Shown: positions 4,610 through 54,327, numbered from the stretch's first letter. The stretch is 64,000 nt of DNA from an uncultured Myxococcales bacterium (GCA_964493205.1 CAZBMJ010000001.1:9611-73610); one strand, 5' to 3'. Made by a program: numbers and translations. Notes: generated by a model from the sequence alone, not told the origin.

Positions 4610-4665
4610 CTGTTACCAAAATTTCAACTAACTTGCTATATATCTTAAAAGAGGCTTTAAATAAC

Positions 4666-9806: not shown

Positions 9807-9818
9807 TTGGAGTATTAA

Positions 9819-29932: not shown

Positions 29933-31384
29933 ATGTTACAACGAATTTATTGCTTATTAATTATTTTACTTTTTACTTTTACTTTATCTGCTGAAAATTT
30001 TGATTTTATAAATAGTTATCATATTAATAATCTTCATAAAAAAGGCATAAGTGGTGAGAATTATGAAGTAGGTATTCTTGAAAAAGGTTTAATTAATCAT
30101 TGTTCTCTTAATAATATACAATCTATAAGTGGTAGTTATAAAACAGATGTGGACCCTCATGCTAATCACGTAGCTGCCATATTAGCGGGTAATAGGTGCG
30201 AATCAGGTGATTTTAAAGGTGGTGTTTTAAAAAATGCTCAATTAGTACAAGCGCCCATTAACACTTATTTTGAACTAAAAAATGAAACACAATATAATTA
30301 CACCGATAATATCATTGATGCCCTTGAAGCTTTAGCTAAAAAAACTAAAATAATTAATTTTTCTCAAAGTTTTACAGATGTAAAGCGCACAACTTGGGGA
30401 TTTTCTAGAGAAAAATTTCATAAATTTTCTGATGAACAGATTGAACGCATAAAAAATATTTTAATTACAAATAATGCTGTTTTAATAAAAACTGCTTCTA
30501 ATGAAAGTAAGTATAGATTTGGAGAGGAAGATAGTGCAACGTATGGTATTCTTCAATTATTAAAGGCAGGGCTTGAAGATTATATATTGATTGTAACTAA
30601 CCTTGAATATGTGGATAGTCAAGATCTTAAAAATGAACGTGATTTTTACTTAGGTATGCAAGATTTAGTCAAAATTCTTGACCATAAAAAAAACGAAAAA
30701 ATAGAATACCATAAGCTTGGAACTATTATGAGCGATTATATTATTAATACGATGGAATATGAAAAAACTAATAGTTTTACTAAAGAGGAGTTGGTCAATG
30801 CAATTCCAGAACTATATACTGATTCTACGACACTCGAGCTATTTATGAAAGGAGGAGATGTTGAAGAGGGACTAAGAAAAGATTATCCCAAAATAGCAGG
30901 CTTTATTTCTGAGTTAGTTAAAGAAATTAATTTATTTATTACTATTAGGCCAACTATTAGCGATAAAAGTCAAATAGATGATCTAACGTATGAAGAAATT
31001 ATAGATTCTGCACAAAAAGAGATAAATAATCTAGCCCGGCTTCCTCAAGGAGAAGAACAAAATTTTGAGAATGCTGGTAAACTGAGAACTATGATTGCTG
31101 GAAATAATGAAATAGTGCAAAGAAATTTTATTGCTGCCTATGGAACTAATATTTATTCAGCTGGTAAAAATTTTAATGAATTTAAAACTGATACTGGTAG
31201 TAGTCAGGCTGCTCCTATTGTAACTGGTATAGCTGTATTGCTTCATGAATATTTGCGTAAAGAAAATAAAAATATTTCTTTTGTTGATGTTATTAAAATA
31301 ATCAAAGAAAATGCACGTCAAATAGGGGATGCTAGTTCTTTTGGTAGAGGAATTCTAGATGTTAAAAAACTTTTTAAAGATTAA
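29933..31384 (+). CDS. secreted subtilisin-like (S8 family) peptidase, with Glu at the catalytic-Asp position
   Basis: Signal peptide MLQRIYCLLIILLFTFTLSA. His motif HANHVAAILAGN, Asn motif TASNES and Ser motif GSSQAAPIVTG. The segment VGILEKG aligns to subtilisin VAVIDSG. The start codon is ambiguous (29873, 29921 or 29933). Confidence 0.6.
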   Translation: MLQRIYCLLIILLFTFTLSAENFDFINSYHINNLHKKGISGENYEVGILEKGLINHCSLNNIQSISGSYKTDVDPHANHVAAILAGNRCESGDFKGGVLKNAQLVQAPINTYFELKNETQYNYTDNIIDALEALAKKTKIINFSQSFTDVKRTTWGFSREKFHKFSDEQIERIKNILITNNAVLIKTASNESKYRFGEEDSATYGILQLLKAGLEDYILIVTNLEYVDSQDLKNERDFYLGMQDLVKILDHKKNEKIEYHKLGTIMSDYIINTMEYEKTNSFTKEELVNAIPELYTDSTTLELFMKGGDVEEGLRKDYPKIAGFISELVKEINLFITIRPTISDKSQIDDLTYEEIIDSAQKEINNLARLPQGEEQNFENAGKLRTMIAGNNEIVQRNFIAAYGTNIYSAGKNFNEFKTDTGSSQAAPIVTGIAVLLHEYLRKENKNISFVDVIKIIKENARQIGDASSFGRGILDVKKLFKD

Positions 31385-31449: not shown

Positions 31450-32262
31450 TTGTTAAGTATAGACCAAAAAATAAATATAAAAAATTTTGTTTGGCCTTGG
31501 CTATTTTCATTTTTATTATGCTCATTAGCAATTTTCTTATTTATTCTTAGTATTTTTATTGAAGTGCCATTAAAAATTTCAGGAAAAGGCTGGTTTTTAA
31601 TGCATGGAGAGATTCATCAAATTACTAGTCTTCATCATGGTATTATTGACGAGTGGTTAGTAAAAGAAGGTGATAATGTAGAAATTTCTCAAATAGTTGC
31701 AAAAATTATAAGTGAAGAAGATCCTACAAAATTCATAGAAATAAGAAGTTTGCATAAGGGTATAATGGCTGAAATTTTAGCTTTTAGTGGATCTAAAGTG
31801 GTATTTGGACAATCATTAGCATTGATTACTCCTCATGGTGACAAGCACCAAGATTTACAAATAATGGCTTTTGTTTCATCGCTAGATGGTAAAAAGATTA
31901 GACCAGGTATGGCTGTAGAAGTTTTTCCAAGTATTACAGATTTTCATCAAAATGGATATTTAGTTGCGCAAGTTTCAGAAGTTTCTAAGCTGCCAATAGC
32001 TAAATCTGCGCTGTATTCACTCATAAAAATACCTGAGTTGGCTAAGTATATAAGACAAAGTGTGCAAGCTGAGCCTTTTGTTATATCTTTAAAGCCTGTT
32101 TTAAATAGTAATCATAAAACTGGTTATTTGTGGCAGGGTAAGGGTCCATTATTTGCTCTAGATTCTGGTATTATTGCTGATGTTTATGTTATTTATGAAT
32201 ATTCAAGTATACTAAAACTCATATGGCCATCTTTTCATAATCTTTTATTTAGAGATGAATAA
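31450..32262 (+). CDS. short HlyD-like membrane-fusion/accessory protein lacking the alpha-helical hairpin
   Basis: N-terminal TM helix and two lipoyl-like half motifs separated by only ~25 aa. TTG start. Translationally coupled to the next gene. Confidence 0.5.
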   Translation: MLSIDQKINIKNFVWPWLFSFLLCSLAIFLFILSIFIEVPLKISGKGWFLMHGEIHQITSLHHGIIDEWLVKEGDNVEISQIVAKIISEEDPTKFIEIRSLHKGIMAEILAFSGSKVVFGQSLALITPHGDKHQDLQIMAFVSSLDGKKIRPGMAVEVFPSITDFHQNGYLVAQVSEVSKLPIAKSALYSLIKIPELAKYIRQSVQAEPFVISLKPVLNSNHKTGYLWQGKGPLFALDSGIIADVYVIYEYSSILKLIWPSFHNLLFRDE

Positions 32263-34191
32263 ATGTTTAGCAATATAAAAAAAACAAAAAGTTTACTGCA
32301 AATAAATCCTGTGGAATGCGGTGCTGTTTGTCTTAGTATTGTATTAAAATATTTTAGAATAAATCATAATCTTAATGAATTAAATAATAGTATAGGATTA
32401 TCATCTGCTGGCTGTAATGCCTTAAATTTAATTGAAACTATAAAGAAGTACTCTTTAAATGCTGAAGCAAAAAAATATTTATCTAATGATGTAAAAAAAG
32501 ATTCTCATATGCAAATTTTATTGTTTAATAACAGCCATTTTGTTGTTTATGAAGGATTTTATCATAAAAAATACTATATTAACGATCCAGCCTGTGGTCG
32601 TTATTGTTTAGCTGAATCAGAATTTAAAAAAAAATATTCTAATTTTAGTATTATTATTTTAAATAATCTTAATAATAATTTTTTTAAGATGCTTAAAAAT
32701 ATAAATATTAAAAATTATATAAATAATATATTTTTATATTTATGTGGATTTTTAGTTGGATTATTATTTTGTTTTATAAGCTTTACTGTAAGTAATTTAA
32801 TGTTTAAATCTTTAATTTCAAAACATTATTTAAGTTTAATTTTTTTTATTTTTATATTTTTTAATTATTTTTTATTTTTATATTTTGATAAATTAAATTT
32901 ATTATTATCTGTTAAATATTATAAAAAATTATTAATAAATATTTTTAATGTTAAACCAGACTTTTTTAATAATAACCCGTCTTATTTAGTTTCTAGTAAA
33001 ATCATAAATGACTTTTTTAGTTTTTTACAAAACAAAAAGCACGCTATAAGAACACCAATTTTTACTGGAATAGTTTTTTCTTTAATTTTTTCATTTTTTG
33101 TTTCTAATAAAAATATTTTTTTATCTTTATTATTAATATTAGGTTTTTTACTTGTAATTTTATTAGTTTTTAAAAATAAAATACAAGAATTTTTACGAGA
33201 AAAAGAACAATTTAGTTCTACCATTTCTTTTGCCCTTTTTAATAGCTTATCTTTTAATAAGGGATGGCAGCAAGAATCAAATAACCAAAAATCAATAAGA
33301 TCTTTAATGAAAAGTGAGTTTTTATTTTTATCAATTAATTTTAATAAGATTATTTTATATAATTTTCTTCGTCATATGAATAGTATCTGCTTTTTATTTA
33401 GTGTATTATTATTAAGCGTAGTTGGTTTTTCTGAAATGCATGTTGGTCGTATTTATATTTCAGAATTAATGGCCTTATTATTTTCTTTACCTTTGTTGTA
33501 TTTTCTTCTTAATTATTTATTGATATATAATAATAGTGATAATAATGCAGGTGATTTAAGATTAGAATATGAAGGTTTAAAAAAAGAAAATTTTAGCTCT
33601 TTAAACTTAAAAATAGAAAAGAATAAAATATATGCTTTAATAACTGTTTCAGAGCGGGAAAAAATAGAATTTTTAACTGATTTAACTAATAATAAAAAAT
33701 ATGATTTTTTATATTCTTTAATAAACAATGAGAGCTCTTTGATTAATGGAAGCATTATTGAAAATATTTGCTTAGCTACTTTTGAACATAATGAACAAAA
33801 AATTATAAAAGCATTAGAGCTAGCTTGTATTAATGAAATTTATTTTAATAGACCAATGGGTTTGTTAACTTTTATTGATAAGTATGGAAGCACTATTAGT
33901 CATGGCCAAAAAAAGCGTTTGTTATTGGCTAGAAGCTTATTTTATAATCCAGAATTATTATTACTCGATGATTTTTTTGATGCTCTCCATCAAGAAGTAG
34001 TTATAAAAATTTTAGAGAACTTAAAAAAGATACAAATTACTACTATTTTTACAGCTACCCGTGAATTTGAGCTATTGCAAGCTCATGAAATAATTTTTTT
34101 ACATAATAATAAAGTAGTGCAAGGAACTCATGAAGAGCTCTTAAGAAGCAATAAGCATTATCAAGGAATTTTTGTCAAATGGACAATTTAA
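32263..34191 (+). CDS. ABC half-transporter with an N-terminal C39 peptidase domain and a degenerate NBD
   Basis: C39 motifs QINPVECGAVC (Cys), NSHFVVYEGF (His) and NDPACG (Asp). A TMD follows. The NBD has no Walker A and carries signature ISHGQ, Walker B LLLDD (no Glu) and no H-loop His. Confidence 0.7.
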   Translation: MFSNIKKTKSLLQINPVECGAVCLSIVLKYFRINHNLNELNNSIGLSSAGCNALNLIETIKKYSLNAEAKKYLSNDVKKDSHMQILLFNNSHFVVYEGFYHKKYYINDPACGRYCLAESEFKKKYSNFSIIILNNLNNNFFKMLKNINIKNYINNIFLYLCGFLVGLLFCFISFTVSNLMFKSLISKHYLSLIFFIFIFFNYFLFLYFDKLNLLLSVKYYKKLLINIFNVKPDFFNNNPSYLVSSKIINDFFSFLQNKKHAIRTPIFTGIVFSLIFSFFVSNKNIFLSLLLILGFLLVILLVFKNKIQEFLREKEQFSSTISFALFNSLSFNKGWQQESNNQKSIRSLMKSEFLFLSINFNKIILYNFLRHMNSICFLFSVLLLSVVGFSEMHVGRIYISELMALLFSLPLLYFLLNYLLIYNNSDNNAGDLRLEYEGLKKENFSSLNLKIEKNKIYALITVSEREKIEFLTDLTNNKKYDFLYSLINNESSLINGSIIENICLATFEHNEQKIIKALELACINEIYFNRPMGLLTFIDKYGSTISHGQKKRLLLARSLFYNPELLLLDDFFDALHQEVVIKILENLKKIQITTIFTATREFELLQAHEIIFLHNNKVVQGTHEELLRSNKHYQGIFVKWTI

Positions 34192-36125
34192 TTTTAAATT
34201 TAGCTAAATTACGAAAAGTTAGCGCTAATAAAGAAGAAAAGTCTTTGGATTGTGCAGTGCTTTTCTATTTACTTGATCATGCAAGAAATTTTTTTAACAT
34301 ACCATCAAAAATTACTTTTAATTTTTTTATAACAAATACTTTTATTACAGTTTTATATGAATTATGCAAACAAGCTCAATTAAATTTTATTGAATTTAAT
34401 GATTTCAATACTAAATATTTAAATGCTTTTTTACCATTAATTGGAGTTCATAAAAAAAGTTTTTCTTTTTCTTTATTTATTCCTTATGGATTAAGTAAGT
34501 ATAAAATTATTGAGTATGAAAATAAAAACAAAAATATAGTATCAAAAAATATGTTAAAGGACGACTATGTTTTACTAGGAGCTTTTTATCCAAAGAATAT
34601 AAATCTAAACTCTATTTTTTCATTACATAAAATTATTGTATTTTTAATTTTTTTTTCTTTGTTAGTAATTGCATGCTTTTTATTTGTTAGTTATTTTAAT
34701 TATATTAATAATTTACTTCTTTTGTTGATTTCTTTATTTATTTTTTTGTTTTTCCTGGTGTTTATATATATTTTTATTGTCACTAAACTACCTCTTTTTG
34801 TTCTTATTTGTATGCATAAATTTTATGAAAAGTCTTTAATTCGTCAAGAGCAGAAAAAAATTGAAGATTTTTATGGTATTATTTTTAATTTTATATGGTT
34901 GCTGTTTTTTTGTTTAGTATTGTTATTTAGTGTAATTTCTATTGCTATATTCTTGAAAAATTTTATGTTTATTATTTTTTCTTTAGTGAGTTTATTATTC
35001 TTAATAATATATTTTTATTTTAACATTCAACTTCAAAAATTACAAAGCAAAATAGAATCATCAAAAATAAATATTATTGATAAAACCAATGAATATTTTG
35101 AAATATTTTCTTTTATTTTGTCTTTTAAAAAACAAGAATTTTTTTTTCAAAAAATTATAACATATTTTGATGGTTTATTATTAAATATTATAAAATATAT
35201 TAAATATTTTAATATGAAAATTTTATTTATTATGGCAAGTTCTTTTGCTTGGTTTTTTGTGTTAAATTTATTTATTATTGTTTTTAAGTTAACTATCTTA
35301 GATTGGCAAGTATGGTTTTTATCAGTTTTAAGTGTGATATTTTTGTTTTTTATGGAACGAACTAATAATTATATTTATCTAATGCTAAAATTTTATAAAG
35401 ATTATTTACATTTTTCTACTCAAGATTTTTCTAAAAAAATAAAAGTAAGGCCTGTTCATATAGAAGGTTCTATTGAGTTAATTAATATTTGTTTTTCTTT
35501 TGATGAGCAAAGCTCTTTATTATTTAAAGATTTGTCGCTAAGTATTAAACCAGGAGAAATGGTCGCAATAGTTGCTAAGTCTGGAGCAGGTAAATCTAGC
35601 TTGCTGAGTATACTGGCAGGTATCACTAGGCCTACGAAAGGTTTAGTCGTTTTTGATGGTCAAGATGCACAAAGCCTAGATTTGTTAATGCTTAGTGATT
35701 ATTTTGCTTTAATTACCCATGCCACAAAATTATTTGCAGGCAGTGTTTTTGATAATATTAATTTTGGTCGTAATATTTCTTTTTCAAAAGTTAATAAGCT
35801 TATTAATTCTCATGAGATATTTTCTTCTTTGCTACAGTTGCCAATGGGATTAAATACTTATGTTTTTTGGCATGCAAAAAATATTTCTAGATTTGATTCT
35901 TATCTGATATTTTTGGCCAGAGCATTAATAGAACAACCAAAAGTACTTTTGCTAGATGAAGCTTTGGCTGGATTGAGTATTCAGCAGCAAATCAGCTTAT
36001 TAACTTATTTGAAAAATTTAAATCTAACTTGTGTTATTTCTAGTAACGATTTAGTTCCACAAAATTATTTTGACCAAATATTTGAAATATACGAATTTTC
36101 TTTGAACAAAATCCATCTCGCATAG
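34179..36125 (+). CDS. ABC half-transporter with an N-terminal C39-like domain and a Walker A/B-competent NBD
   Basis: Walker A AKSGAGKSS and Walker B VLLLDEA. The signature is degenerate (ISRFD) and the H-loop is degenerate. Overlaps the upstream gene by 13 nt. Confidence 0.7.
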   Translation: MDNLILNLAKLRKVSANKEEKSLDCAVLFYLLDHARNFFNIPSKITFNFFITNTFITVLYELCKQAQLNFIEFNDFNTKYLNAFLPLIGVHKKSFSFSLFIPYGLSKYKIIEYENKNKNIVSKNMLKDDYVLLGAFYPKNINLNSIFSLHKIIVFLIFFSLLVIACFLFVSYFNYINNLLLLLISLFIFLFFLVFIYIFIVTKLPLFVLICMHKFYEKSLIRQEQKKIEDFYGIIFNFIWLLFFCLVLLFSVISIAIFLKNFMFIIFSLVSLLFLIIYFYFNIQLQKLQSKIESSKINIIDKTNEYFEIFSFILSFKKQEFFFQKIITYFDGLLLNIIKYIKYFNMKILFIMASSFAWFFVLNLFIIVFKLTILDWQVWFLSVLSVIFLFFMERTNNYIYLMLKFYKDYLHFSTQDFSKKIKVRPVHIEGSIELINICFSFDEQSSLLFKDLSLSIKPGEMVAIVAKSGAGKSSLLSILAGITRPTKGLVVFDGQDAQSLDLLMLSDYFALITHATKLFAGSVFDNINFGRNISFSKVNKLINSHEIFSSLLQLPMGLNTYVFWHAKNISRFDSYLIFLARALIEQPKVLLLDEALAGLSIQQQISLLTYLKNLNLTCVISSNDLVPQNYFDQIFEIYEFSLNKIHLA

Positions 36126-36161
36126 CTATATATATTTTTAATAAGCTTGAAAGAGGTTTTT

Positions 36162-39146
36162 GTGCCTAAAGTAGAAAATAATATCGTTCAAAATAGTCAA
36201 AATCTTATTTTAGAAAACATTGATAATAATAAAAAAAATACTTTTAGTATAATGGGTATCAGCATATCTGGCCTTGATTCATCATGCATAAATAATCTTA
36301 ATTTGGTGCTTAATGTAGATTTAGCTGCGGGCAAAAAGAAAATTAGATTTAAAAATAAAGAAGCTCTTCTAGATGTAAGGCCCAATACAAAAGCTTTAAT
36401 TCAAATTAAATTATTTAAAAATATAAACAAACTTGCCATAGAGCAGATTAAAGTTTCTTTTGAAAAAAAACTAATTATTAAAAATCCTGCTTCTTCAATG
36501 AGTTCTAATCCTAATAATTTGACTAATACTATTAAAGACTCATTAGTGGATTTAAAGCTTAAAGAAGTTTTAATAGATCAAGAAGGTAATGTTTCGGTAA
36601 ATTCTAAAATTAAAATTCTTAAATTATTTAATAAAAAAATTAAACCATTAATTAATCCTTTAAAAATGCCTGATCTAGAAGAAATATTTTTATCTAATTT
36701 GGGTATAAGTAATGATGAAAATAGTATTGATAATTTAAACTTAAAAAATCTTTTAAAAGATTTAGGTTGCTTGACTTCTCAAGCATTTTTTAGTCTTGAT
36801 GTTAATGGACCTGTTAAAGACCTTTTTCTAAACGGCAATGGGGTAAAAATAAAAGGTCATCAAGAAATGCTAAAAATTTTTGTTAAAGGTGCTTTTGATC
36901 TAGATAAAGAGGGCGGGCTATCAATAAACATACACAAAGATTATTCACACATACAAAGTAGCTTAGGAAAAACAAATTTTGAAGCAGATATTTATATTCC
37001 TAAAATATATAATGCTAAGAAAAAACCTATAAATTTAAGTTTAAAAGCAAGTATTACCAGCGAAATAAACGATATTTTTATTGAAGCAGCTACTGATAAA
37101 GCTATCACTCAGATGATGCCACGAACGCAAAAAAAAGATGATAAGGCCACAGAATCCATAGTAGATGATTTTAATACATCTTTTGGTAGTAAAAAATTAG
37201 TAGCTACTATGGGTATAGATATTAAGGCTGCATTAGATCCAAAAATGAATATTTCATCAATGAATGGATACGCAAAGATGCGTACAAAATTTACCGATGC
37301 TTTTGGTTTATCAAAAGATAGAGGAATAGAGCTGTCGGGAAAACTTTATACCGATGTTACTATTAACAAATTTAGTTATCATCAAGGCGATGCTTTTATT
37401 AAGAGTAAAGGCAGTGCTGCATTTCTAATAAAACCTTCTCGCAAAATAGAAGAAAAATTTCCTGGTATTAAGCCATTTAATACTAAATATAAATTTAGCA
37501 CTAATAGCACTGCTCAAGCAAAAATAGTACCATCTAGCAAGGGTTTGACACATTTTTTATACCCTGTAAAAAATTTAGAAGGTCATTATGAAAGAATAAA
37601 TAATGATTTAACGAAGAATAATATTTGTGAAATAGGAAGCAAAGAGTATTTTGAACAAATAAAAAGAATTACTGGGGCAAGCATAAGAAATACTCAAAAA
37701 GTTAAGCTTTTAATAGATGGCCAAGCTTCTATGCCAGAGCGAATAAAGCTAATTAATGAAGCAAAAGATTTTATTTGCTTTCAAACCTTAGTTTTTAAAG
37801 GCGATAAAAGTGGTTTAGAATATGCTAATGCTTTAATCAATGCTTCTCAAAGAGGGGTTAAAATTTATGGTATTATAGATTCTCTTGGTAACATTGAGTC
37901 TTTTGATGAACTTGAGCATGAACACCCGATTTATAAATTATTGAAAGAAAATGGGATAAAATTTTATTTATATAATTCTTTTTTAGAAGATGGTTTAAGA
38001 GGCTTATTTAAAATCGTAGATCAGTATCCAAATGTTTTTGGAGTGATGAATGCTAAAAATACTAAAAATATACATCAGATAATTAAATTTTTTCAAAAAA
38101 TTATGGAAGTTATTGATTCTAGCGAAACTAAAGATTTTGATAAAAGCAAAAAACGTGAACTAGCTAGAGCCATGCATACATTGTTTGGTGGTAAAACTGA
38201 AGTCTCTACTCAAACGGCTATTAATGAAATTAGAGAAGCTTTAGAAAGTAATAGACTCGATTTAAATGCCATATTGAGCGCGGTGAAACATTTAAGTGAT
38301 ATTTCTTATAGGTGGCATGAAAAATATTTAGTTGCCGATGGTGATAAAGCTATTATTGGTGGAATGAATATTGCTGATGAGTATTTGATGGGTGGAAGTC
38401 CTGAAATTCTCAACCTTAAGGGAAAAGAACAGCTTGCCTGGCGTGACACAGATGTTTTATTGCATGGCGATGGTGCTTGTGACGTTTATAAAAATTTTCG
38501 TAGAAATTGGTTTTATTTATCCAATCATCGTTTAGAAAAAGGCCCTAAGATTAGTCATCCAAGTACTGGTAAACAGGTAGCTATATTGCAGCATCGGCCT
38601 ATGATCGATCAAGACCACAATATTTCAAATTTTTTGCTCTATAACTTAAGAACTCTTAGCCCAGGACAAAGAGCTTGGTTTGAAACAGCATATTTTTTAC
38701 CACGCGGCGTTTTAAAAATTTTGCAAGAAGAATTAGTCAGTGCAGCTAAAAGGGGAGTAGACGTAAGAATACTAACTAATAGCGAAAAAACTAGTGATTT
38801 TGGTCCGTTGGTAGAATCTTGTATTTTTGACACCAGAGAACTTATTAGGGCGGGAGCTAAAGTTTATCACCGCAACGAAGGCCGTATGGTACATTCTAAA
38901 GTGTCTATTTTTGGTGATAATTTAACGTTGGTGGGCTCTTGGAACTTTGATAATCGTTCAGCTTTTCATGATTCAGAAGATGCTTGCGCTATTTATGACC
39001 AAGAGCTAACAAAAGATATGATTGCTACTTTAGAAAAAGATATGTATGAAGATTCCTATGAAGTTAAATTAGCGGACATAAAAAATCAGCCCATAGCTAA
39101 TGAGTTAAAAAGTGCTGTTATGCTTCTTGGGGCTGAATTGTTTTGA
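36162..39146 (+). CDS. large phospholipase D-superfamily protein (two HKD motifs), N-terminal ~490 aa unassignable
   Basis: GTG start preceded by AAGAGG. HKD motifs WHEKYLVADGD and VHSKVSIFGD. No signal peptide. Confidence 0.7.
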   Translation: MPKVENNIVQNSQNLILENIDNNKKNTFSIMGISISGLDSSCINNLNLVLNVDLAAGKKKIRFKNKEALLDVRPNTKALIQIKLFKNINKLAIEQIKVSFEKKLIIKNPASSMSSNPNNLTNTIKDSLVDLKLKEVLIDQEGNVSVNSKIKILKLFNKKIKPLINPLKMPDLEEIFLSNLGISNDENSIDNLNLKNLLKDLGCLTSQAFFSLDVNGPVKDLFLNGNGVKIKGHQEMLKIFVKGAFDLDKEGGLSINIHKDYSHIQSSLGKTNFEADIYIPKIYNAKKKPINLSLKASITSEINDIFIEAATDKAITQMMPRTQKKDDKATESIVDDFNTSFGSKKLVATMGIDIKAALDPKMNISSMNGYAKMRTKFTDAFGLSKDRGIELSGKLYTDVTINKFSYHQGDAFIKSKGSAAFLIKPSRKIEEKFPGIKPFNTKYKFSTNSTAQAKIVPSSKGLTHFLYPVKNLEGHYERINNDLTKNNICEIGSKEYFEQIKRITGASIRNTQKVKLLIDGQASMPERIKLINEAKDFICFQTLVFKGDKSGLEYANALINASQRGVKIYGIIDSLGNIESFDELEHEHPIYKLLKENGIKFYLYNSFLEDGLRGLFKIVDQYPNVFGVMNAKNTKNIHQIIKFFQKIMEVIDSSETKDFDKSKKRELARAMHTLFGGKTEVSTQTAINEIREALESNRLDLNAILSAVKHLSDISYRWHEKYLVADGDKAIIGGMNIADEYLMGGSPEILNLKGKEQLAWRDTDVLLHGDGACDVYKNFRRNWFYLSNHRLEKGPKISHPSTGKQVAILQHRPMIDQDHNISNFLLYNLRTLSPGQRAWFETAYFLPRGVLKILQEELVSAAKRGVDVRILTNSEKTSDFGPLVESCIFDTRELIRAGAKVYHRNEGRMVHSKVSIFGDNLTLVGSWNFDNRSAFHDSEDACAIYDQELTKDMIATLEKDMYEDSYEVKLADIKNQPIANELKSAVMLLGAELF

Positions 39147-42787: not shown

Positions 42788-44812
42788 TTAGTTACCAAAC
42801 ATAAAATATGCTGCAAAATTACCGACAATAAAAATAGTTAGGCACATAAGAGCTTTTAAGTGGGAAAAGTCTGGCAATAATTCTTGTGTGGTAGTTTGTC
42901 TTTTGCCATAGAGTACTGATGAAGTCATTTGTATAAGATTTATACCATTTATAACAAATATTAAGTGAAAACAAATAACAAATAACAGTCCTTTGTGAAT
43001 AGATAAATGCAGTAATAAATCTTCTGCAAAAAATGAAGTTGATAGAGGAAAAGCTATTATTCCTAAAATACTAATTAAAAATAGTGTTCCAGCACGAGGG
43101 AAAAAATAATAAAGACCTAAAAATTTTTCGAAAGAAACTATTTTTTTGTGCTTTTTAATATGATGCATGCAGTAAAGACAGACAAAAAAAGATATTACTA
43201 ACCCTAAAAAAAAGAAAATAATAGCTCGTAGGGAAACATCATTTACAAAAATAATACAGAGATAGCATAAAGCATAGCTAAGAATAACTAAACTAAGAAG
43301 TAAGACGGGGTCTTTTTTTTCAGCAAGAGCACATAAACTTAAAAACAGGCTTAAGGTTAACGCAAGCGCTTGAAAAAAATATAACTCTGGCCATAAAAGT
43401 AAACTACTAATAACGCTAAACATAAGTAATAAAGGAGGTATAAAAGAAAAAAATATAGTCTCAGAAATGGCGTTTAGTTTACTTCTTGAAGAGATCTTAT
43501 TAAAAATAAATAAATTATTGTAACAAGCTTCACTTACTATTTTTATTGGCGTAACAAAAATTTTTATTAAAATTGCTTCAAAATATCCTTCGTTTAGGGC
43601 AAAGATAAATAATCCTTGATGAAATTTTTTGGGTACTAAGTTAAGTACAGAATATCTTTGTAAAAAATAGGCAGGTTTTTCTAGACTTTGTAATTGCAAG
43701 TGAGTTGCTATAATAGAAGGTGAAACAAGCAACTGAAAACAACGCAAAAATGTGTTTCCTACCATATGAAATAAAGCTAAATATTTAAGACCTAGAGCAA
43801 GTTCTATGAGTATTATTCCAACTTGAGCAATAGAAGTATAGCCAATTTGGCCTTTAATATTTGATTGTACATGAGCAAAAAGGCTACAGCTTAATGTTGT
43901 TATTAATCCAATGCTTGCGAGCAAATAACTAAAACCAGGAGTGCCTTGCCAAATAGGCATGGTTCTGATGAGTAAAAAAACTCCTGCATGTATTGATAAG
44001 GAACCATAAAAAAGTGCACTGGAAGAAGTAGGGCCTTCCATAGCTTTAGGAAGCCAAAAACTAAATGGAAATTGAGCAGATTTCCCTAAGACTGGCAGCA
44101 ATAAACAGATGCTTAAAATCCAATGCCAAAAAAGAGAAATAGGCATTTCTGATTGCAAGTTCGACCACTTGTTAAGTTCTTCAAAAGTTGTGGCATCATG
44201 CCAATAAAAATGCGTAATTAAAACTCCAGCCAAAAATCCTAAATCACAAACACGAAAAATATAATATGCTCTATTAGCTGCTACAATAGCTTTTGGCCGG
44301 TGCCAAAAATATCCTATTAATAAGAAAGATGAAATTCCCATTATTTCCCAAGCAGCAAAAGTTATGTCGAGAGTTCCTGATAATGAAACCAAATTAATAC
44401 CAAAGGTAAAAAATGAAACTACAGTAAAAAACCTAGTAAAACCGGGATCACGGTGCATATATTTAGTGGAGAAAAAACATATTATATTGACTATTAATGT
44501 TGAGCATAACAAATAAATTATAGATATTAAATCTACAAATAATGAAAAATGCAGATGATAATCAGGTAAAATATAGAGTTTAAATAATTCGTAAGATTCA
44601 GTTGGCATAAACGCTCTTATCCAAGCAATAAAAGCCATTAATGTAAAAAATAAATTTATTAAAAAAATACTTTTGATAATTATAACAGTAAGATATTCTT
44701 TTTTTATTATAGTAATTTTATTTAAATTAAGAAGACTTAAGCAAAGCCCAGATAATAATGGAGTAAATAGGCAAACTAGTAATGAAAACCATAATAAATT
44801 CAGGTTAATCAT
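42788..44812 (-). CDS. dabB: DabB, NuoL/MnhA-like proton-translocating membrane subunit of the DAB inorganic-carbon pump
   Basis: 674-aa polytopic protein with NuoL/Mrp antiporter-like helices. Its stop overlaps the dabA 3' end. Confidence 0.7.
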   Translation of the reverse strand: MINLNLLWFSLLVCLFTPLLSGLCLSLLNLNKITIIKKEYLTVIIIKSIFLINLFFTLMAFIAWIRAFMPTESYELFKLYILPDYHLHFSLFVDLISIIYLLCSTLIVNIICFFSTKYMHRDPGFTRFFTVVSFFTFGINLVSLSGTLDITFAAWEIMGISSFLLIGYFWHRPKAIVAANRAYYIFRVCDLGFLAGVLITHFYWHDATTFEELNKWSNLQSEMPISLFWHWILSICLLLPVLGKSAQFPFSFWLPKAMEGPTSSSALFYGSLSIHAGVFLLIRTMPIWQGTPGFSYLLASIGLITTLSCSLFAHVQSNIKGQIGYTSIAQVGIILIELALGLKYLALFHMVGNTFLRCFQLLVSPSIIATHLQLQSLEKPAYFLQRYSVLNLVPKKFHQGLFIFALNEGYFEAILIKIFVTPIKIVSEACYNNLFIFNKISSRSKLNAISETIFFSFIPPLLLMFSVISSLLLWPELYFFQALALTLSLFLSLCALAEKKDPVLLLSLVILSYALCYLCIIFVNDVSLRAIIFFFLGLVISFFVCLYCMHHIKKHKKIVSFEKFLGLYYFFPRAGTLFLISILGIIAFPLSTSFFAEDLLLHLSIHKGLLFVICFHLIFVINGINLIQMTSSVLYGKRQTTTQELLPDFSHLKALMCLTIFIVGNFAAYFMFGN

Positions 44813-47168
44813 TTAGTCCTCCTTCTAAAATTTTAAATTCTTTTGTTTCTGTACAAAAAATCCATAGTTTATTTTCAGTAATGGATAAACAACCAAGCTT
44901 CATCCAGTCATTAAAAATCCAATTATGAAATGCTTGATTATTTTGTATTATTTTTTTAATTATTTCTTTCTCTTGTTCTATTACTAAAAAAAGCCGTATG
45001 GGATCATGTAGTTCTGTCATTTGGATAGGTAGACCAGTTCTTAAGTCATCATCTGCTCCATTGCCTACCCCTAAAAGACTTGAAACATTATGAGAAACTT
45101 TACTTCCACAACCATAGATGCTTGGGTCAAGTCTAGAAAAATAGTATGCTAAATTAATCCCTCCAGCTACTGGTATTAATGCTGACAAAATTTCATTAAG
45201 AATAATGCCTTCTGGATCAGTTAAGGGATCATAGCTTTGCAGAAATGCTCTGCGATTAAAATTTTTTCCATAAGAACGCTGACGTCTTGCTACAATTGCT
45301 AAAGCATTGGTGGCATTCCCCAGTTCTGGCCTGGGTTCAAAGAGTGATAAAGAACGTTTTTTGACTTCTAACAAAGCATCTTTGGGGCTTATATCTTTGG
45401 AGACTAAAGCAAATTTTTCGCATCTTTCTTTAGCATTATGCATACAAACTTTATGAAGAATTTTTTTAAAGTTAGAAATATGATTTTTGTGGTTAGGAAG
45501 TAAATTTTTAGTATCAAAAAATTCTACTTCGTCTGTGCATGTATTATGTGAGCCAGCTACAAATATGGTAGAGTCAGGTATTTTTAAATCTTGTTGTTCT
45601 AAAAGTTTTCTTACTTGCCTATTATTAGCCATTTGAGCTAAAATAATAGCGTTAATAGTGCCCGGCTGGCCGCAACATGCTCCACAATTATATCCAGCAA
45701 AATGGGGATTGTTAGTGCTAGTTGATCCATGAGCCATAAAAATTATTAAAGGCGCAAAATTATTCAGTAATCCTATTGAAGTAAGAGTTTTTTTAACAAT
45801 AAATGCCATTTCGTCTTCAGTATAGCCAATTTGATATTGTTTATACTTTGGAAATTTTGAATCAAAAATAAAATCAAAATTATTAAAAGTTTCCTTAGTA
45901 ATAGGTCCTTGCCACCATTTTTTTTGTGGCCATACAAGACTTGCAAGCATGCTCAATAAAGAAAGATGTCCAAGGGTATGGGTGGCGATAAAGTCGAGAA
46001 AAATATTATGAGAGCCATATTTAGCGGCATAATTAGTAAGAGCTAAATATTTATTTTTTTTTGGTTTATTTTTACGAATTATTACATGAGTGGGATTTAG
46101 GGGGAGTGGGCAAATTTTTTCTTTTTGTTTTGAGCTTTCATCTAATAAAAAACTGTCTATATTAAAAAAACCAGGCATGCTAAAAGTCTCAATATTCAAA
46201 GAAAAATGTTCTAACCACCTTCTGAAAGATTCTTCTCGAGCATCTATGCAACAAATTACTTGGGTATCAATTGTAGATTCTATTTTATTTGGTGCCAAAA
46301 CTAAAAGTTTAGCAACTTTTTCATAATAAGTAAGCTCCATAGCTTCATGCCAAATTTTTTGTAAATTTCTAACTTGGTTATTTTTATTAAAATCTGCTTC
46401 AAGTTTGCTTAGGTAAACAGTAGTTTTTTTATATTTTTCTATGAACAGATATTCTAGAACAAGTTTAAAAGCCAATACTTCTTTTAGGGTTATATTTACT
46501 GGTTGATTTAGTAATTTTGAACTCTTTTCTAAAGAATTTACCATTCCTGACCAGCCAGGGTGAACTAGTAGTGATTCAAAAATATATTGTTCATAATAAA
46601 TTTCGTCTTTAGTAATTAATTTAAGTATATCTAGAATTATTTTATCAGGCTCATTAATTAAGTATTGATTTAAAGTTTTATTACTCGCAAATGAAACTAG
46701 CGGCATAGTGCTCTTAGTAATTAAATCCCGTACGCTTATTAAAAATCCTTTAGTTTTATCTAAGTAATTCCATAAGCTAATACCTTGATCTGTGTAAAAG
46801 CTAAGTAATCTAAATAATATTGGATTAATGTGATGATCAATATTTTTCTTTATTTGCTTATTGATTAAATCCCTAAAAGTTCTTTTTTTAAAAATTTCTT
46901 CTGCCTCATTAAAATTATTTAAATCATGCAAAGTTATTTTTTCATCAGATATTTCTTGGTTTTTATATTTTTGTCTATAAAAAGATAAGGGCATATAGCT
47001 GTAAGAGTTATATATCTCTGAGGCTTTTTTTATGCCTTCATGAAAATTATAGTCCATAAAACTAAGTAGAATATTTTGTTGGACAAAGTTTTTGATGGGA
47101 CCTTGAATAGGCAAATATTTCCTAACATAACTTAGACAATCATCTAAGTTAAAGTTGTTATTATTCAC
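44805..47168 (-). CDS. dabA: DabA (DUF2309) carbonic-anhydrase-like subunit
   Basis: 787 aa with the conserved CCIDAREE and HGSTSTNNPHFAGYNCGACCG metal-ligand regions. GTG start with GTGAGG RBS. Overlaps dabB by 8 nt. Confidence 0.75.
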   Translation of the reverse strand: MNNNNFNLDDCLSYVRKYLPIQGPIKNFVQQNILLSFMDYNFHEGIKKASEIYNSYSYMPLSFYRQKYKNQEISDEKITLHDLNNFNEAEEIFKKRTFRDLINKQIKKNIDHHINPILFRLLSFYTDQGISLWNYLDKTKGFLISVRDLITKSTMPLVSFASNKTLNQYLINEPDKIILDILKLITKDEIYYEQYIFESLLVHPGWSGMVNSLEKSSKLLNQPVNITLKEVLAFKLVLEYLFIEKYKKTTVYLSKLEADFNKNNQVRNLQKIWHEAMELTYYEKVAKLLVLAPNKIESTIDTQVICCIDAREESFRRWLEHFSLNIETFSMPGFFNIDSFLLDESSKQKEKICPLPLNPTHVIIRKNKPKKNKYLALTNYAAKYGSHNIFLDFIATHTLGHLSLLSMLASLVWPQKKWWQGPITKETFNNFDFIFDSKFPKYKQYQIGYTEDEMAFIVKKTLTSIGLLNNFAPLIIFMAHGSTSTNNPHFAGYNCGACCGQPGTINAIILAQMANNRQVRKLLEQQDLKIPDSTIFVAGSHNTCTDEVEFFDTKNLLPNHKNHISNFKKILHKVCMHNAKERCEKFALVSKDISPKDALLEVKKRSLSLFEPRPELGNATNALAIVARRQRSYGKNFNRRAFLQSYDPLTDPEGIILNEILSALIPVAGGINLAYYFSRLDPSIYGCGSKVSHNVSSLLGVGNGADDDLRTGLPIQMTELHDPIRLFLVIEQEKEIIKKIIQNNQAFHNWIFNDWMKLGCLSITENKLWIFCTETKEFKILEGGLND

Positions 47169-47175
47169 TAGTGCC

Positions 47176-48753
47176 TCACGCGGTTTTATGAGTTGCTAAG
47201 CAATGATTAGAAACAGGTTTTAGTTTAATTAAGCCTGTTATTTGTAATTTTTCAGCTGTAAATTTAGATAAAAAATTTTTTAAACATATCATCGTTGTGT
47301 GGTCAATAATATTTACTTGCGATACATCTAAAATAACTTTTTTAGAATTATTAAGTTCTTTATTAAGCAAATTTTGTAGCTGTAGGGAATTAGAAAATAC
47401 TAAAGCTCTTGTTACTTCAATAATTGTTTGCTCGTCAGTATGGGTTATTTTACTTTTTAGAATAAAAAAATCTTTAATAGTAAGGCCTCTGCTTAAATGA
47501 AAAATCACTTTAACTAATAAACCAGCCATTACACCTATCAGTAAATCTTCCGCTAAAGTTACCAATAAAGTTGTACAAAACATTAATAATTGATCTATAC
47601 CGATACTTTTTGCATGCTTAATTTGACTTGGAGCAGCTAGTTTAAAGCCAACCATAATTAACATAGCAGCCAGTGCTGAGAGAGGTATTTCTCTTAGTAA
47701 ATCACCAAAAAATACTACAGCAATCAATAAAAATAAACCATGAAAGAAAGCTGACCATTTATTGCTTGCTTTGCTGTCAATATTAGCTTTACTTCTTACT
47801 ACTTCTGAAATCATAGGCAGCCCACCTAATAGTGAGCTAATCAAGTTGCCCACACCAATGGCTAGAAGATCTTTGTTTAAGTCAGATTCTTTTTTTGTCT
47901 GCGTTATAGAATCCACAGCTATAACTGTTAATACAGACTCAAGACTGCCCACTAAAGCAAGCATGGCAACATATTTATACGCAATAGCTTGTTGTAAAAT
48001 ACTAAAGTCAGGCCATACCAATGAATCTAGTAAGCTATGGGGTATATTTATTAAAAATTCAGGTCCAACGTTAAAGTCATAACCAAATAAAGTATAAGAA
48101 TGAGCATCGTGTAAATGCCAAACGATGCTTAATGGAACGACTATTAATAAGGCAGCCAGTGCTGGGGGTATGGTTTTGATTATTCTATTATTATTTTTAG
48201 GCAGTAAAACCATGCAGAAAATAGTTATTAATCCAATAAATAAAAGTTCTGGATTAGCGTGCATAATACTATTAGGTATTTCACTTAATAGTTCAAAAGG
48301 AGTTTTTCCAGAAGGAATATTACCTAGTAAAATATGGCTTTGCTTAGCAATAATAATGACTCCAATAGCAGCAAGCATTCCATGAATTACAGAAGGTGGC
48401 ATTATTTTACCAAATTTGGCAGTTTTAAATAAAGCCAGTAAAATTTGACATAAAGCAGCAACAACTCCTACAGCTAACGCTCTTTTATAACCTAGTACTA
48501 CATCTCCTTGCCCCAAATCATTTACAGTCGCCATTACAATAACGATAAGTCCAGCAGCAGGGCCCTTTATAGATAACTTACAACCAGCTAAGTGACTGCA
48601 GACTATTCCTGCAACTATAGCCGTTATTAATCCAGCAATGGGAGGAAAAGAACTTGCAGAGGCTATACCAAGGCTTAAAGGCATAGCTAATAAAGCAATA
48701 AAAAAACCAGATTGAATATTTTTAAAAATATGATTATCAAGTTGTCTGTTCAT
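47176..48753 (-). CDS. SulP family anion transporter with a C-terminal STAS domain (candidate bicarbonate transporter)
   Basis: SulP TM core plus a STAS domain. Its stop lies 7 nt before the dabA start. Confidence 0.75.
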   Translation of the reverse strand: MNRQLDNHIFKNIQSGFFIALLAMPLSLGIASASSFPPIAGLITAIVAGIVCSHLAGCKLSIKGPAAGLIVIVMATVNDLGQGDVVLGYKRALAVGVVAALCQILLALFKTAKFGKIMPPSVIHGMLAAIGVIIIAKQSHILLGNIPSGKTPFELLSEIPNSIMHANPELLFIGLITIFCMVLLPKNNNRIIKTIPPALAALLIVVPLSIVWHLHDAHSYTLFGYDFNVGPEFLINIPHSLLDSLVWPDFSILQQAIAYKYVAMLALVGSLESVLTVIAVDSITQTKKESDLNKDLLAIGVGNLISSLLGGLPMISEVVRSKANIDSKASNKWSAFFHGLFLLIAVVFFGDLLREIPLSALAAMLIMVGFKLAAPSQIKHAKSIGIDQLLMFCTTLLVTLAEDLLIGVMAGLLVKVIFHLSRGLTIKDFFILKSKITHTDEQTIIEVTRALVFSNSLQLQNLLNKELNNSKKVILDVSQVNIIDHTTMICLKNFLSKFTAEKLQITGLIKLKPVSNHCLATHKTA

Positions 48754-48888
48754 AATTTTTCCCATTGGATTCACTACCAGTATAGCTTTATTTGCTGTAT
48801 TTGGAAGGAATTTTAGGCATATAGTCAAGTATTGACAAACAAATTTAAAATTGATCAAGCTTTATTTAAATTTTACAGGAATTTAAAA

Positions 48889-54027: not shown

Positions 54028-54327
54028 ATGATTAAAATTTATCGAACTATTGAATTTATTGAATGGTTTTCGCTAGAAAGTGAGAAATCGAAAGTTCAAA
54101 TTGATGGTCGCCTATCAAAAATTCAAGATGAAAATTATTTTGGTTCCCATAAATTTGTTGGTGATGATAAAGCTGAAGTATGGGAACTTAAATGGAAAAA
54201 TGGTCGCAGAGTTTATTATGCTTACCTGCCAGAAAGCCAGATTTTAGTTTTATTTTGAGGAATAAAAAATGCTCAAAAAAAAGATATTAAAAACGCAAAA
54301 AGCCTCTACACTAAATATGTTGAATAA
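54028..54327 (+). pseudogene. RelE/ParE-superfamily 'addiction module killer' toxin gene with an in-frame TGA at the conserved Cys codon
   Basis: The ORF stops at 54256-54258, but the same frame continues as GIKNAQKKDIKNAKSLYTKYVE*. That matches the canonical family C-terminus ..LLCGGDKSTQQKDIKKAK.. with TGA where Cys normally sits. Confidence 0.6.

Follow-up and report, generated by a model that had tools for sequence, protein, structure and literature searches.

The NHLP/Nif11 bacteriocin export cassette (TIGR03794/TIGR03796/TIGR03797) was described by Haft et al. in 2010 (PMC2887384). A cassette of two ABC proteins plus an HlyD protein was also reported in Legionella, in the LB2SS/LB3SS systems (PMC6959600). 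The stretch of DNA analyzed here, 64 kb in length and called the window below, contains the same layout. Adjacent genes encode an HlyD-like adaptor, a C39-ABC protein (ABC1), and another ABC protein (ABC2) that carries no active peptidase. The top NCBIfam match of each was the corresponding member of the NHLP cassette. The adaptor matched TIGR03794 (NHLP system HlyD) with an E value of 1.2e-32 and 113 bits against a 156-bit cutoff. ABC1 matched TIGR03796 with 183 bits against 853, and ABC2 matched TIGR03797 with 141 bits against 709. All three scores are far below the family cutoffs, so a function equal to that of the NHLP exporters is only putative.

The gene trio was present in all related loci. 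The canonical relatives (L005-L013) contain the same trio with consensus NBD motifs in both ABC proteins, and Nif11 or GG-leader ORFs were present near the cassette in L005, L010, and L012. The window trio is a very divergent version of this known NHLP/Nif11-type cassette and not a new type of system. The original prediction had called the layout atypical; two ABC genes with an HlyD gene are instead the described three-gene cassette, also found in Legionella. The dead ABC1 NBD next to an intact C39 catalytic set, the non-catalytic ABC2 N-domain, the dead signature of the live ABC2 NBD, the adaptor without a hairpin, and the lack of a nearby GG-leader gene are derived features of a subclade. 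The hosts of this subclade are uncultured bacteria, and their closest named relatives are Myxococcota MAGs.

Layout of the locus

The cassette is followed on the same strand by a gene for a PLD-superfamily protein (PLD). The features of the locus were as follows.

29873..31384, + strand: S8 subtilase-like neighbor with a Sec signal, outside the conserved unit (Pfam S8, E 4.5e-10)
31450..32262, + strand: HlyD-like gene, 270-aa ORF; short-form HlyD-family periplasmic adaptor with a TM helix, a lipoyl-like domain, and a beta-barrel domain, the coiled-coil hairpin missing
32263..34191, + strand: ABC1, 642-aa ORF; C39 peptidase, transmembrane domain, and degenerate NBD
32287..32658, + strand: C39 peptidase domain of ABC1, residues 9-132 (PF03412, E 8e-25), catalytic residues intact
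33580..34188, + strand: degenerate NBD of ABC1, from alignment with canonical cassettes and clade relatives
34179..36125, + strand: ABC2, 648-aa ORF; C39-like domain, transmembrane domain, and competent NBD
34269..34595, + strand: C39-like non-catalytic N-domain of ABC2, about residues 31-139 (hhalign)
35424..36122, + strand: NBD of ABC2 (Pfam ABC_tran, E 1.6e-19, full length)
36147/36162..39146, + strand: PLD-superfamily protein, 999/994 aa from two possible starts
36149..36156, + strand: Shine-Dalgarno-like GAAAGAGG, located 5 nt before the PLD GTG, as read from the DNA itself
36162..36239, + strand: disordered N-terminal tail of PLD, residues 1-26 (pLDDT below 50)
36240..37541, + strand: beta-rich N-domain of PLD, about residues 27-460, lineage-restricted
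37629..39143, + strand: catalytic half of PLD with two HKD motifs (HEKYLVADG; HSKVSIFGD...GSWNFDNRS)

The ORF table and profile searches reproduced all of the coordinates, junctions, and domain calls of the original prediction. The searches that it proposed matched Peptidase_C39, ABC_tran, HlyD, and PLDc, but Pfam ABC_membrane was undetected in ABC1. The HlyD and ABC1 genes are separated by 0 nt, ABC1 and ABC2 overlap by 13 nt, and a 36-nt spacer lies between ABC2 and PLD. Touching or overlapping stop and start codons join only the first three genes. The adaptor and the two unlike half-transporters (one C39, one C39-like) do form one coupled unit, as predicted. The translational coupling proposed for all four genes did not extend to PLD, which has its own spacer and ribosome-binding site. 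Its GTG start at 36162 is the start in the public gene call. The PLD gene is probably cotranscribed with the cassette. Same-strand neighbors are all tightly packed here, with 50 nt between rimO and the S8 gene and 25 nt between PLD and serS.

The DNA of the locus is AT-rich. The intact ABC ORFs run to 642 and 648 codons, far beyond chance, since 200 shuffles of 32263..36125 gave stop-free stretches of at most 134 codons. The ORFs are intact in seven lineages.

The adaptor and the two ABC proteins

The adaptor contains a single N-terminal TM helix (residues 19-37). Residues 17-87 align to positions 5-75 of type_I_hlyD, and residues 97-263 align to positions 255-420 of TIGR03794. The models are covered to position 75 and then from 255, so about 180 positions, corresponding to the hairpin, are missing. 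The short form is common to the clade, with lengths of 264-278 aa in six of six relatives compared with 425-470 aa in the canonical cassettes. No gene for an OEP-family (TolC-like) partner was present in the subset of window ORFs that was scanned.

ABC1 contains about five hydrophobic segments between residues 156 and 421. Its C39 domain carries the motifs LQINPVECGA (Gln13, Cys19), HFVVYEG (His92), and NDPA (Asp108). This Gln/Cys/His/Asp set was kept in the alignment of the window with L004, L017, L021, L022, and L024. The NBD is degenerate. Walker A is lost (ALITVSEREK), Walker B reads LLLDD, the H-loop His is missing, and the signature (ISHGQ) is kept. Pfam ABC_tran matched it only partially (E 8.6e-6, model positions 68-134). 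In the clade, Walker A of ABC1 is lost or altered, Walker B reads DD, DE, or DH, and the H-loop His is absent. The signature is of the xSxGQ type in three of the four aligned relatives and LSYGE in L021.

ABC2 contains hydrophobic segments between residues 152 and 391. Its N terminus had no Pfam match and no PDB sequence match. By profile-profile comparison, this N-domain is homologous to C39. The hhalign comparison of 13 N-domain sequences with a C39 profile of 12 sequences gave a probability of 94.4% and an E value of 9.2e-8 over 107 columns in register, and the reversed control gave an E value of 0.31. The His and Asp positions of C39 are not conserved in it. The ABC2 orthologue of L024 does not contain the N-domain. 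The ABC2 NBD contains intact Walker A (KSGAGKSS) and Walker B (LLLDE) motifs with a degenerate signature (ISRFD). The pattern of intact Walker A and degenerate signature was also present in L004, L014, L017, L021, L022, and L024. Walker B of the clade ABC2 proteins ends in DE in four of five relatives and in DD in L014.

The complementary loss of NBD motifs is common to seven loci (the window, L004, L014, L017, L021, L022, and L024). ABC1 has a dead NBD that keeps its signature and ABC2 a live NBD with a degenerate one, which points to an obligate heterodimer with one competent ATP site. ABC1 would supply the intact C39 peptidase and an ATPase-dead NBD with a usable signature motif. ABC2 would supply the non-catalytic C39-like domain and the sole competent Walker A/B. 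With its motifs split in this way, the transporter may run on one composite ATP site, much as exporters of the TAP1/2 or TM287/288 type do. A substrate may dock on the C39 domain, be cleaved, and then be driven across the membrane domains. Because the hairpin that would dock TolC is missing from the adaptor, the periplasm may be the end of the route. The gene structure, the family assignment, the asymmetry of the motifs, the pattern of synteny, and the lack of a GG leader were observed directly, whereas we infer the heterodimer function, the single ATP site, the periplasmic end-point, and an unlinked cargo.

The PLD gene and the cargo of the transporter

PLD matched PLDc_2 (E 1.4e-28), and its PLD fold carries the two HxK(x)4D motifs of the superfamily. 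Its AF2 model, built from a 21-sequence alignment, had a pLDDT of 82.8 and a pTM of 0.76. PLD scored below the cutoffs of both cardiolipin synthase models (121 against 290 bits for TIGR04265 and 91 against 281 for ClsB). It looks like an active, cardiolipin-synthase-like enzyme with two HKD motifs, preceded by a beta-rich N-domain that is restricted to this lineage and has no family assignment. The claim that PLD does not carry a signal peptide was borne out. It contains no hydrophobic or TM segment, and a Sec signal is absent throughout the family.

The gene order PTPS, S1 protein, rimO, cassette, PLD, serS, GST, pilin-like, rluD was present in the window, L017, L021, L022, L024, and L014, which speaks for vertical inheritance. 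The four genes from HlyD to PLD are contiguous in these six lineages, and both flanks vary. The ABC2-to-PLD junction is uninterrupted, on the same strand, and 36-118 nt long in all six. On the upstream side the insertion is the S8 gene or a 228-aa gene, and L024 has another gene there. On the other side, insertions of one to three genes lie between PLD and serS. Only this lineage has the S8 gene between rimO and the cassette; the gene is missing there in L004, L021, and L022. L017 carries the unrelated 228-aa gene, for a lipoprotein, at this position. The S8 gene and a 492-aa gene of L002 are not homologues. A functional unit under selection would be expected to show such an intact junction with varying flanks. 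The linkage also lies within a longer conserved block, so adjacency alone is no proof of a cargo relationship. Conserved linkage was what the original prediction would need, and the contiguity in six lineages agrees with it. The unit is split or absent in four other lineages, however. In L001, L002, L016, and L020, PLD has no cassette beside it, and L004 has the cassette but no PLD.

Inspection of motifs and ORFs turned up no GG-leader ORF in the spacers or the whole 64-kb window, and no precursor of the NHLP (TIGR03793) or Nif11 (TIGR03798) type with a GG cleavage site, which agrees with the original prediction that no precursor-peptide gene lies near the cassette. None was called beside the cassette in L004, L017, L021, L022, or L024. 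Neither the window nor the surroundings of the cassette in any relative yielded another candidate cargo. The real substrate of the C39 domain probably has its gene elsewhere in the genome.

PLD is a conserved same-strand downstream neighbor of the cassette, and the cargo role that the original prediction proposed for it is possible, though we consider it doubtful. The heterodimer would recognize the disordered N-tail, or the unfolded protein, through its C39 and C39-like domains. The 110-kDa protein would cross the inner membrane without Sec, its tail possibly trimmed, and would be released to the periplasm or envelope, given the adaptor without a TolC-docking hairpin. Binding of large unfolded substrates is established for the C39-like domains of HlyB-type transporters. 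The contiguous four-gene unit with its varying flanks, the lack of another cargo gene nearby, the signal-less family, and the 26-aa tail with its weakly conserved MPKVEN-like start are consistent with this role. The tail itself, however, does not contain a GG motif. Its length ranges from 8 to 90 aa in the homologues, and its sequence is not conserved beyond weak similarity in the first six or so residues. No GG/GA/GS site or conserved cleavable N-terminal leader was found in about 27 PLD family representatives. Residues 28-36 (FSIMGISISG) form beta strands within the folded domain of the AF2 model. The glycines of this conserved hairpin follow M, F, L, N, or S and belong to a structured strand. 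In contrast to membrane barrels, the N-domain is poor in aromatic residues (Tyr 0.2-2.3%, Trp about 0). RTX repeats and known C-terminal type I signals are missing, and the conserved C terminus aligns with the end of the cardiolipin-synthase model. PLD also persists without an adjacent cassette in four loci. Its catalytic half is conserved to about the same degree as SerRS (51-60% against 64% between the window and L014), a level that suits a housekeeping enzyme better than an effector. A search of the literature did not turn up a C39 transporter for which a PLD cargo is reported, which also counts against this role. PLD contains no feature of a C39 substrate and would most likely not be threaded through the transporter in the canonical way. 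That the hairpin-less, single-site C39-ABC heterodimer is a dedicated Sec-independent exporter of its signal-less operon partner is likewise a tentative proposal. If it is true, PLD would be the first large folded-enzyme cargo of a bacteriocin-type (PCAT) transporter, and a new mode of recognition would be implied. The enzyme would then reach the envelope or beyond in a lineage rich in eukaryote-like proteins. The host-associated look noted in the original prediction fits the ankyrin, LRR, RCC1, and papain-like proteins in the window and the F-box and RCC1 proteins in relatives.

It is improbable that the cassette has been re-purposed, or is slowly decaying, as a partner of a PLD-type lipid enzyme in envelope or lipid handling, with no peptide export. 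It might, for example, move the lipid or lipid-linked product of the enzyme, with C39 regulatory or vestigial. The ABC genes do evolve fast (identity of 36% for ABC1 and 35% for ABC2, compared with 73% for RimO), and Pfam no longer detects ABC_membrane. The dead NBD, the lost adaptor hairpin, the lost ABC2 N-domain of L024, the search for precursor genes that found none, and the persistent linkage with a cardiolipin-synthase-like enzyme point the same way. Against this, every lineage strictly keeps the catalytic residues of C39 and the motifs around them, which speaks for continued proteolysis. The sites have degenerated in an orderly way, with one consensus site always kept as in functional heterodimeric exporters, and seven lineages have intact ORFs. 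Chance arrival of the low-GC ABC genes beside PLD as a recently acquired bacteriocin island is very unlikely. The GC content does fall to 0.22-0.23 across 32-36 kb, compared with about 0.32 around it. The drop is mainly in codon positions 1 and 2, however, and reflects amino-acid drift. The same genes occur in the same place in relatives with GC contents of 0.33 to 0.50, and no mobile-element genes flank the region. The reading that we prefer, with about even confidence, is a vertically inherited, divergent NHLP/Nif11-type cassette that works as a single-site heterodimer, with PLD not a canonical cargo and the true substrate encoded elsewhere. The cassette would have become specialized in one uncultured Myxococcota-affiliated lineage. 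The original observation of the locus is confirmed, and its interpretation is partly supported.

Comparison with known systems

PCATs (PCAT1 of Clostridium thermocellum, ComA, CvaB, and LagD) are homodimeric, whereas the window system consists of two unlike subunits. In both, an ABC exporter core is fused to an N-terminal C39 domain that carries the Gln/Cys/His/Asp set, and cargo cleavage at export is expected. The window system differs in its single active peptidase and single competent ATP site. The C39 polypeptide does not carry a competent ATPase, since ABC1 is without Walker A, the Walker B Glu, and the H-loop His. No N-terminal double-glycine leader was found in the window or the PLD family.

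TAP1/TAP2, TM287/288, TmrAB, LmrCD, and BmrCD are heterodimeric ABC exporters with one degenerate ATP site. None of these is known to have a peptidase domain or a periplasmic adaptor. In these exporters and in the window pair alike, one subunit has lost the Walker B Glu and H-loop His, the other has lost the signature, and one consensus ATP site is retained. In contrast to these exporters, several clade members lack even the Walker A of the degenerate site.

Type I secretion of the HlyB/HlyD/TolC type shares an ABC protein with a non-catalytic C39-like domain and an HlyD-family adaptor, and it exports very large signal-less proteins. HlyB is a homodimer, its adaptor has a long alpha-helical docking hairpin, and the protein that it exports carries RTX repeats and a C-terminal signal. 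Nothing of this kind was present in the window, where the adaptor is hairpin-less and PLD gave PLDc matches only.

PLD may be compared with ClsA/ClsB, PssA, and secreted effectors such as P. aeruginosa PldA. It falls below the Cls cutoffs. It differs from the lipid enzymes of the superfamily by having no N-terminal TM helices and by its 430-aa beta-rich N-domain.

The second ABC protein of the canonical NHLP cassettes also contains a C39-like N-domain by profile comparison, as in the window. The canonical cassettes keep all motifs in both ABC proteins, whereas the ABC1 NBD and the ABC2 signature are dead in the window. The window cassette also differs from them by its hairpin-less adaptor, by its surroundings, in which no NHLP, Nif11, or GG-leader gene was found, and by the gene of about 1,000 aa for PLD attached downstream in six lineages.

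Four-gene locus and the family of its transport genes

The locus contains four genes, all found in the ORF table exactly where the original prediction had placed them.

31450..32262, + strand, HlyD-like adaptor gene
32263..34191, + strand, ABC1 (C39-ABC) gene
34179..36125, + strand, ABC2 (second ABC) gene
36162..39146, + strand, gene for the 994-aa phospholipase-D-type (PLD) protein, with a GTG start and GAAAGAGG 5 nt upstream

The junctions also measured as described: 0 nt between HlyD and ABC1, a 13-nt overlap of ABC1 and ABC2, and a 36-nt spacer before PLD. The mechanical ORF start of PLD is a TTG at 36147. The ABC1 and ABC2 ORFs span 642 and 648 codons in DNA of 22% GC. Chance cannot account for them, since open stretches in 200 shuffles reached at most 134 codons. 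A promoter and terminator scan gave the same counts as in shuffles. Searches with Pfam and NCBIfam models agreed with the domains expected: Peptidase_C39 (E 8e-25), ABC_tran in both ABCs, a HlyD-family adaptor, and two PLD motifs.

The best NCBIfam matches were TIGR03794 for the adaptor (113 bits versus a curated cutoff of 156), TIGR03796 for ABC1 (183 versus 853), and TIGR03797 for ABC2 (141 versus 709), all far below cutoff. These are the members of the NHLP/Nif11 bacteriocin export cassette. Haft et al. defined this cassette of three genes in 2010 and noted that TIGR03797 lacks the peptidase domain (PMC2887384); it has also been reported from Legionella as LB2SS/LB3SS (PMC6959600). The layout of two half-transporters plus HlyD, predicted to be atypical, is therefore of a known kind.

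A profile scan of genome contigs with the ABC1 alignment retrieved only distant canonical cassettes, and a scan of metagenome contigs with the HlyD alignment retrieved no matches. The canonical cassettes were from Planctomycetaceae, Acidaminobacter, Alphaproteobacteria, Paracoccaceae, a Legionella MAG, and a Nif11/radical-SAM locus, and all contain the same trio. Several have classical precursors nearby (...LSDDILEKVAGG|A in loci L010/L012; Nif11 ORFs in locus L005).

Genomic setting and lifestyle

The window encodes two proteins with six S1 domains (26543..28438, +; 2805..4559, +). The gene at 2805..4559 is the true rpsA. Its product, ribosomal protein S1, is 87-88% identical to that of the closest unnamed relatives and 83-85% identical to that of the closest named relatives, which are Myxococcota/Myxococcales MAGs. 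One of the latter, CP060221.1 (GCA_023898405.1), is a complete 2.5-Mb chromosome with the same locus.

The GC content is 0.22 over the ABC genes and 0.32 around them. The dip is mainly in codon positions 1 and 2, and the ABC genes occupy the same place in relatives with GC contents of 0.33 to 0.50. The dip is therefore attributed to amino acid drift in fast-evolving membrane proteins. Conserved synteny and the comparison of GC1/GC2 with GC3 ruled out a horizontal-transfer island and, likewise, recent horizontal acquisition of the cassette. Apparent near-identity of the GST gene with that of locus L014 was considered as a sign of transfer and dismissed; the DNA is just 68% identical, which is ordinary conservation.

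Among the proteins encoded in the window are an ankyrin protein of 925 aa, an LRR protein, a protein with RCC1 repeats, and a papain-like protease, and F-box, RCC1/WD40, and ankyrin proteins occur in relatives. These make a eukaryote-associated lifestyle plausible, and the predicted host association stands at that strength. The papain C1 protease, the RCC1-repeat lipoprotein, and the LRR protein form a cluster of eukaryote-like secreted proteins (17139..19306, +; 48832..49686, +), which suggests that the lifestyle of this Myxococcota-affiliated lineage is tied to eukaryotic hosts. The F-box and RCC1/WD40 proteins of relatives are at 9048..10028 (-) in locus L024 and 1..74 in locus L016. Upstream of the cassette, L024 also encodes a protein with Asp-rich thrombospondin-type repeats (2..1510, +). 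It ends in a hydrophobic, Arg-rich tail that contains Cys and resembles a MYXO-CTERM sorting signal, which fits a Myxococcota affiliation.

A stretch with a GC content of 0.26 is bracketed by genes for two paralogues (11476..11868, +; 16683..17069, +), ~130-aa proteins with signal peptides that share 67% identity and have no Pfam family. The stretch contains the ankyrin-repeat gene (12046..14823, -) and a BAAT/dienelactone-hydrolase-type gene (15568..16497, -). The two paralogues could be the duplicated boundary of an effector-like island. Between these two genes, ~740 bases (14824..15567, -) contain no ORF of at least 120 aa. A short ORF there (especially 15051..15212, -) resembles a fragment of a TatD-type hydrolase and is probably a decayed paralogue; an intact TatD-like ORF is at 19938..20708 (-). 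The window also encodes a weak Gp49/HigB-like toxin with a HI1420-type antitoxin (54028..54607, +; Pfam E about 1e-3 to 1e-4) and, near its end, a separate small antitoxin-like ORF (63158..63376, -).

The PLD protein and its linkage to the cassette

Linkage could be read in 10 PLD-family loci and 1 cassette-only locus. In the list, "unit" is HlyD-ABC1-ABC2-PLD, and L numbers are related loci.

Gene order at the loci readable for linkage
Window: rimO, S8, HlyD, ABC1, ABC2, PLD, serS; contiguous
L017-L019: rimO, 228-aa gene, unit, 144-aa gene on the other strand, serS; contiguous
L021: rimO, unit, serS; contiguous
L022/L023: rimO, unit; contiguous
L024: different upstream gene, unit, three inserted genes, serS; contiguous
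L014: contig begins inside ABC1, then ABC2, PLD, ankyrin gene, serS; contiguous
L001, L002: mqo, ppa, PLD; no cassette adjoining
L016: protein kinase gene, PLD; no cassette adjoining
L020: marine relative (30% identity), PLD; no cassette adjoining
L004: rimO, HlyD, ABC1, ABC2, then thyX on the other strand; cassette only

Conserved synteny was thus found in part: six loci have the contiguous unit, but PLD stands without an adjoining cassette in L001, L002, L016, and L020, and the cassette stands without PLD in L004. In all six, ABC2 and PLD are separated by an uninterrupted spacer of 36-118 nt, and insertions have been accepted at both flanks. L004 and L016 share a sample of origin and are alike in GC content, so one organism may carry the cassette and PLD unlinked. 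SerRS of the window is 72% identical to that of L001 and 64% identical to that of L014, and RimO is 73% identical to that of L004. From these housekeeping distances, the contiguous unit is the ancestral state and was broken at least twice. The unit sits in a longer conserved block from PTPS to rluD, and slow genome rearrangement thus accounts for part of the linkage. Overall, stability is highest in the trio, which was never broken, lower at the ABC2-PLD junction, and lowest at the flanks of that junction.

Other genes of this neighborhood vary. Only in this lineage does a gene for an S8 subtilase-like protein (29873..31384, +), which has a Sec signal, lie between rimO and the cassette. At the position of the catalytic-Asp motif of subtilases (D-T-G), the protein reads VGILEKG, and the Asp may be replaced by Glu. 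It was ruled out as part of the system, being absent from all relatives, and it shows no similarity to the 492-aa gene next to PLD in L002, so homology with that gene was dismissed too. L017 instead encodes a 228-aa predicted lipoprotein between rimO and the adaptor gene (4168..4854, +). It has no Pfam match, is absent from the window, and has a glycine-rich, hydrophobic C-terminal half (GAGKTLGMGIETFGTYVGVSVGLAIG...). In L004, L017, L021, and L022, the gene for the second S1-domain protein (26543..28438 in the window; 631 aa) always immediately precedes rimO and the cassette. A block encoding DabB-like (proton-antiporter family), DabA, and SulP proteins, with terC and a 413-aa gene (42788..48858, -), is inserted between serS and the GST/pilin-like/rluD group relative to L014, L017, and L024.

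The PLD protein contains no hydrophobic segment. A whole-library HMMER search with its N-terminal 480 residues retrieved no more than 27 clusters from 1.84 billion representatives; nearly all are ~1000-aa proteins of the same architecture. None of the family members found has a Sec signal, so its reported absence from PLD extends to the whole family. The N-terminal tails are polar, 8 to 90 aa long, and conserved only at a weak M-(P/T)-(K/R)-(I/V)-(E/N) start, and they contain no GG/GA/GS site. The first six residues (36162..36179 in the window; homologues P0002 and P0003; L021 9905..) read MPKVEN, MPRIEN, MPKIEN, MPRVES, MTKING, and so on, ahead of the variable disordered tail. For P0260, the homologue from L021, the start in the public gene call is probably 32 codons too late.

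An AF2 model built with 3 sequences was unusable (pLDDT 38.8), whereas that with 21 homologues was confident (pLDDT 82.8, pTM 0.76). In the latter, residues 1-26 are disordered and residues ~28-460 form a beta-rich domain. The conserved FSIMGISISG segment lies within the folded domain as strands. H719, K721, and H911 show no variation, and at least 90% of the sequences share D726 and K913. The catalytic half is conserved about as in SerRS. The conserved C terminus lies inside the cardiolipin-synthase model, so it need not be a secretion signal.

C39-ABC transporters have been studied as homodimers exporting small GG-leader peptides. We looked for GG leaders in small intergenic ORFs and at the N termini of large ORFs, and with a position-weighted motif. 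As predicted, no precursor was found in the spacers, nor was a GG-leader ORF found anywhere in the 64-kb window; motif matches were only internal, in housekeeping genes. No literature linking C39 transporters and PLD was found.

Proposed division of labor in the transporter

The clade comprises the window, L004, L014, L017, L021, L022, and L024. In its alignment, the nucleotide-binding domain (NBD) motifs are degenerate in a complementary fashion. ABC1 has a lost or altered Walker A (ALITVSEREK in the window; GEPLCGKST kept only in L017), a DD/DE/DH Walker B, and no H-loop histidine. Of the four relatives aligned for it, three keep a signature of the xSxGQ type (L021 has LSYGE). In ABC2, Walker A is kept, Walker B reads DE in four of five relatives (L014 has DD), and the H-loop His is usually retained. 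The ABC2 signature has been lost (ISRFD, ITPFE, LSKAQ, LSPFQ, ISRTE). A head-to-tail NBD dimer would thus be left with one competent site, formed by ABC2 Walker A/B and the ABC1 signature, and one dead site.

No clade member departs from the C39 catalytic set of Gln13, Cys19, His92, and Asp108 or from the motifs around it. The N-terminal ~140 residues of ABC2 had no match in Pfam or, with the N-domain profile, in a PDB sequence search. Profile-profile comparison (hhalign) supported the predicted C39-like domain. The match was weak with 9 sequences (probability 38%) and decisive with the enlarged alignment (probability 94%, E 9e-8; reversed control, E 0.31). The C39 catalytic residues are absent from this domain, and the L024 orthologue lacks the domain itself. 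The adaptor is 264-278 aa long across the clade. It fits the family model at both ends and lacks ~180 positions, the coiled-coil hairpin. This hairpin is used to reach TolC.

We judge the chances about even that the trio is a divergent, vertically inherited NHLP-type heterodimer with one protease, one ATP site, and a hairpin-less adaptor. Its substrate would not be encoded nearby, and PLD would be a conserved, probably cotranscribed neighbor and not a canonical cargo. Export of PLD by the ABC pair, as first proposed, draws on the conserved four-gene unit, the lack of any other cargo found, and the universal absence of a signal peptide from the family. It appears rather unlikely, however, given that PLD has no leader of any kind, occurs at loci without the cassette, and is conserved at a housekeeping-like level. 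It is less probable still that the cassette is repurposed or decaying and acts with the PLD-type lipid enzyme.

The locus holds moderate interest as it stands; with PLD as the cargo, the interest would be high. Repeated linkage to a signal-less 1000-aa PLD-type enzyme with an uncharacterised domain raises the question of whether large proteins that have no GG leader can be handled by transporters of this kind. Export of PLD would widen the known range of type I-like secretion. It would also hint at delivery of a lipid-modifying enzyme by a poorly known, possibly eukaryote-associated, Myxococcota-affiliated lineage. Otherwise, the locus is an ordinary divergent bacteriocin-type exporter next to a lipid enzyme.

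Under the divergent-heterodimer reading, labor is divided between the halves of a natural, conserved C39-ABC transporter, with the protease in one and the ATPase in the other. The hairpin-less split exporter would be a ready-made system for studying how export can be driven by a single ATP site and a single protease. Canonical NHLP/Nif11 cassettes keep Walker A, signature, Walker B, and H-loop in both ABCs in the NBD alignment, whereas the clade does not. One competent and one dead ATP site are typical of obligate heterodimeric exporters such as TAP1/2 and TM287/288, and the motif pattern of ABC1 and ABC2 in the clade is like theirs.
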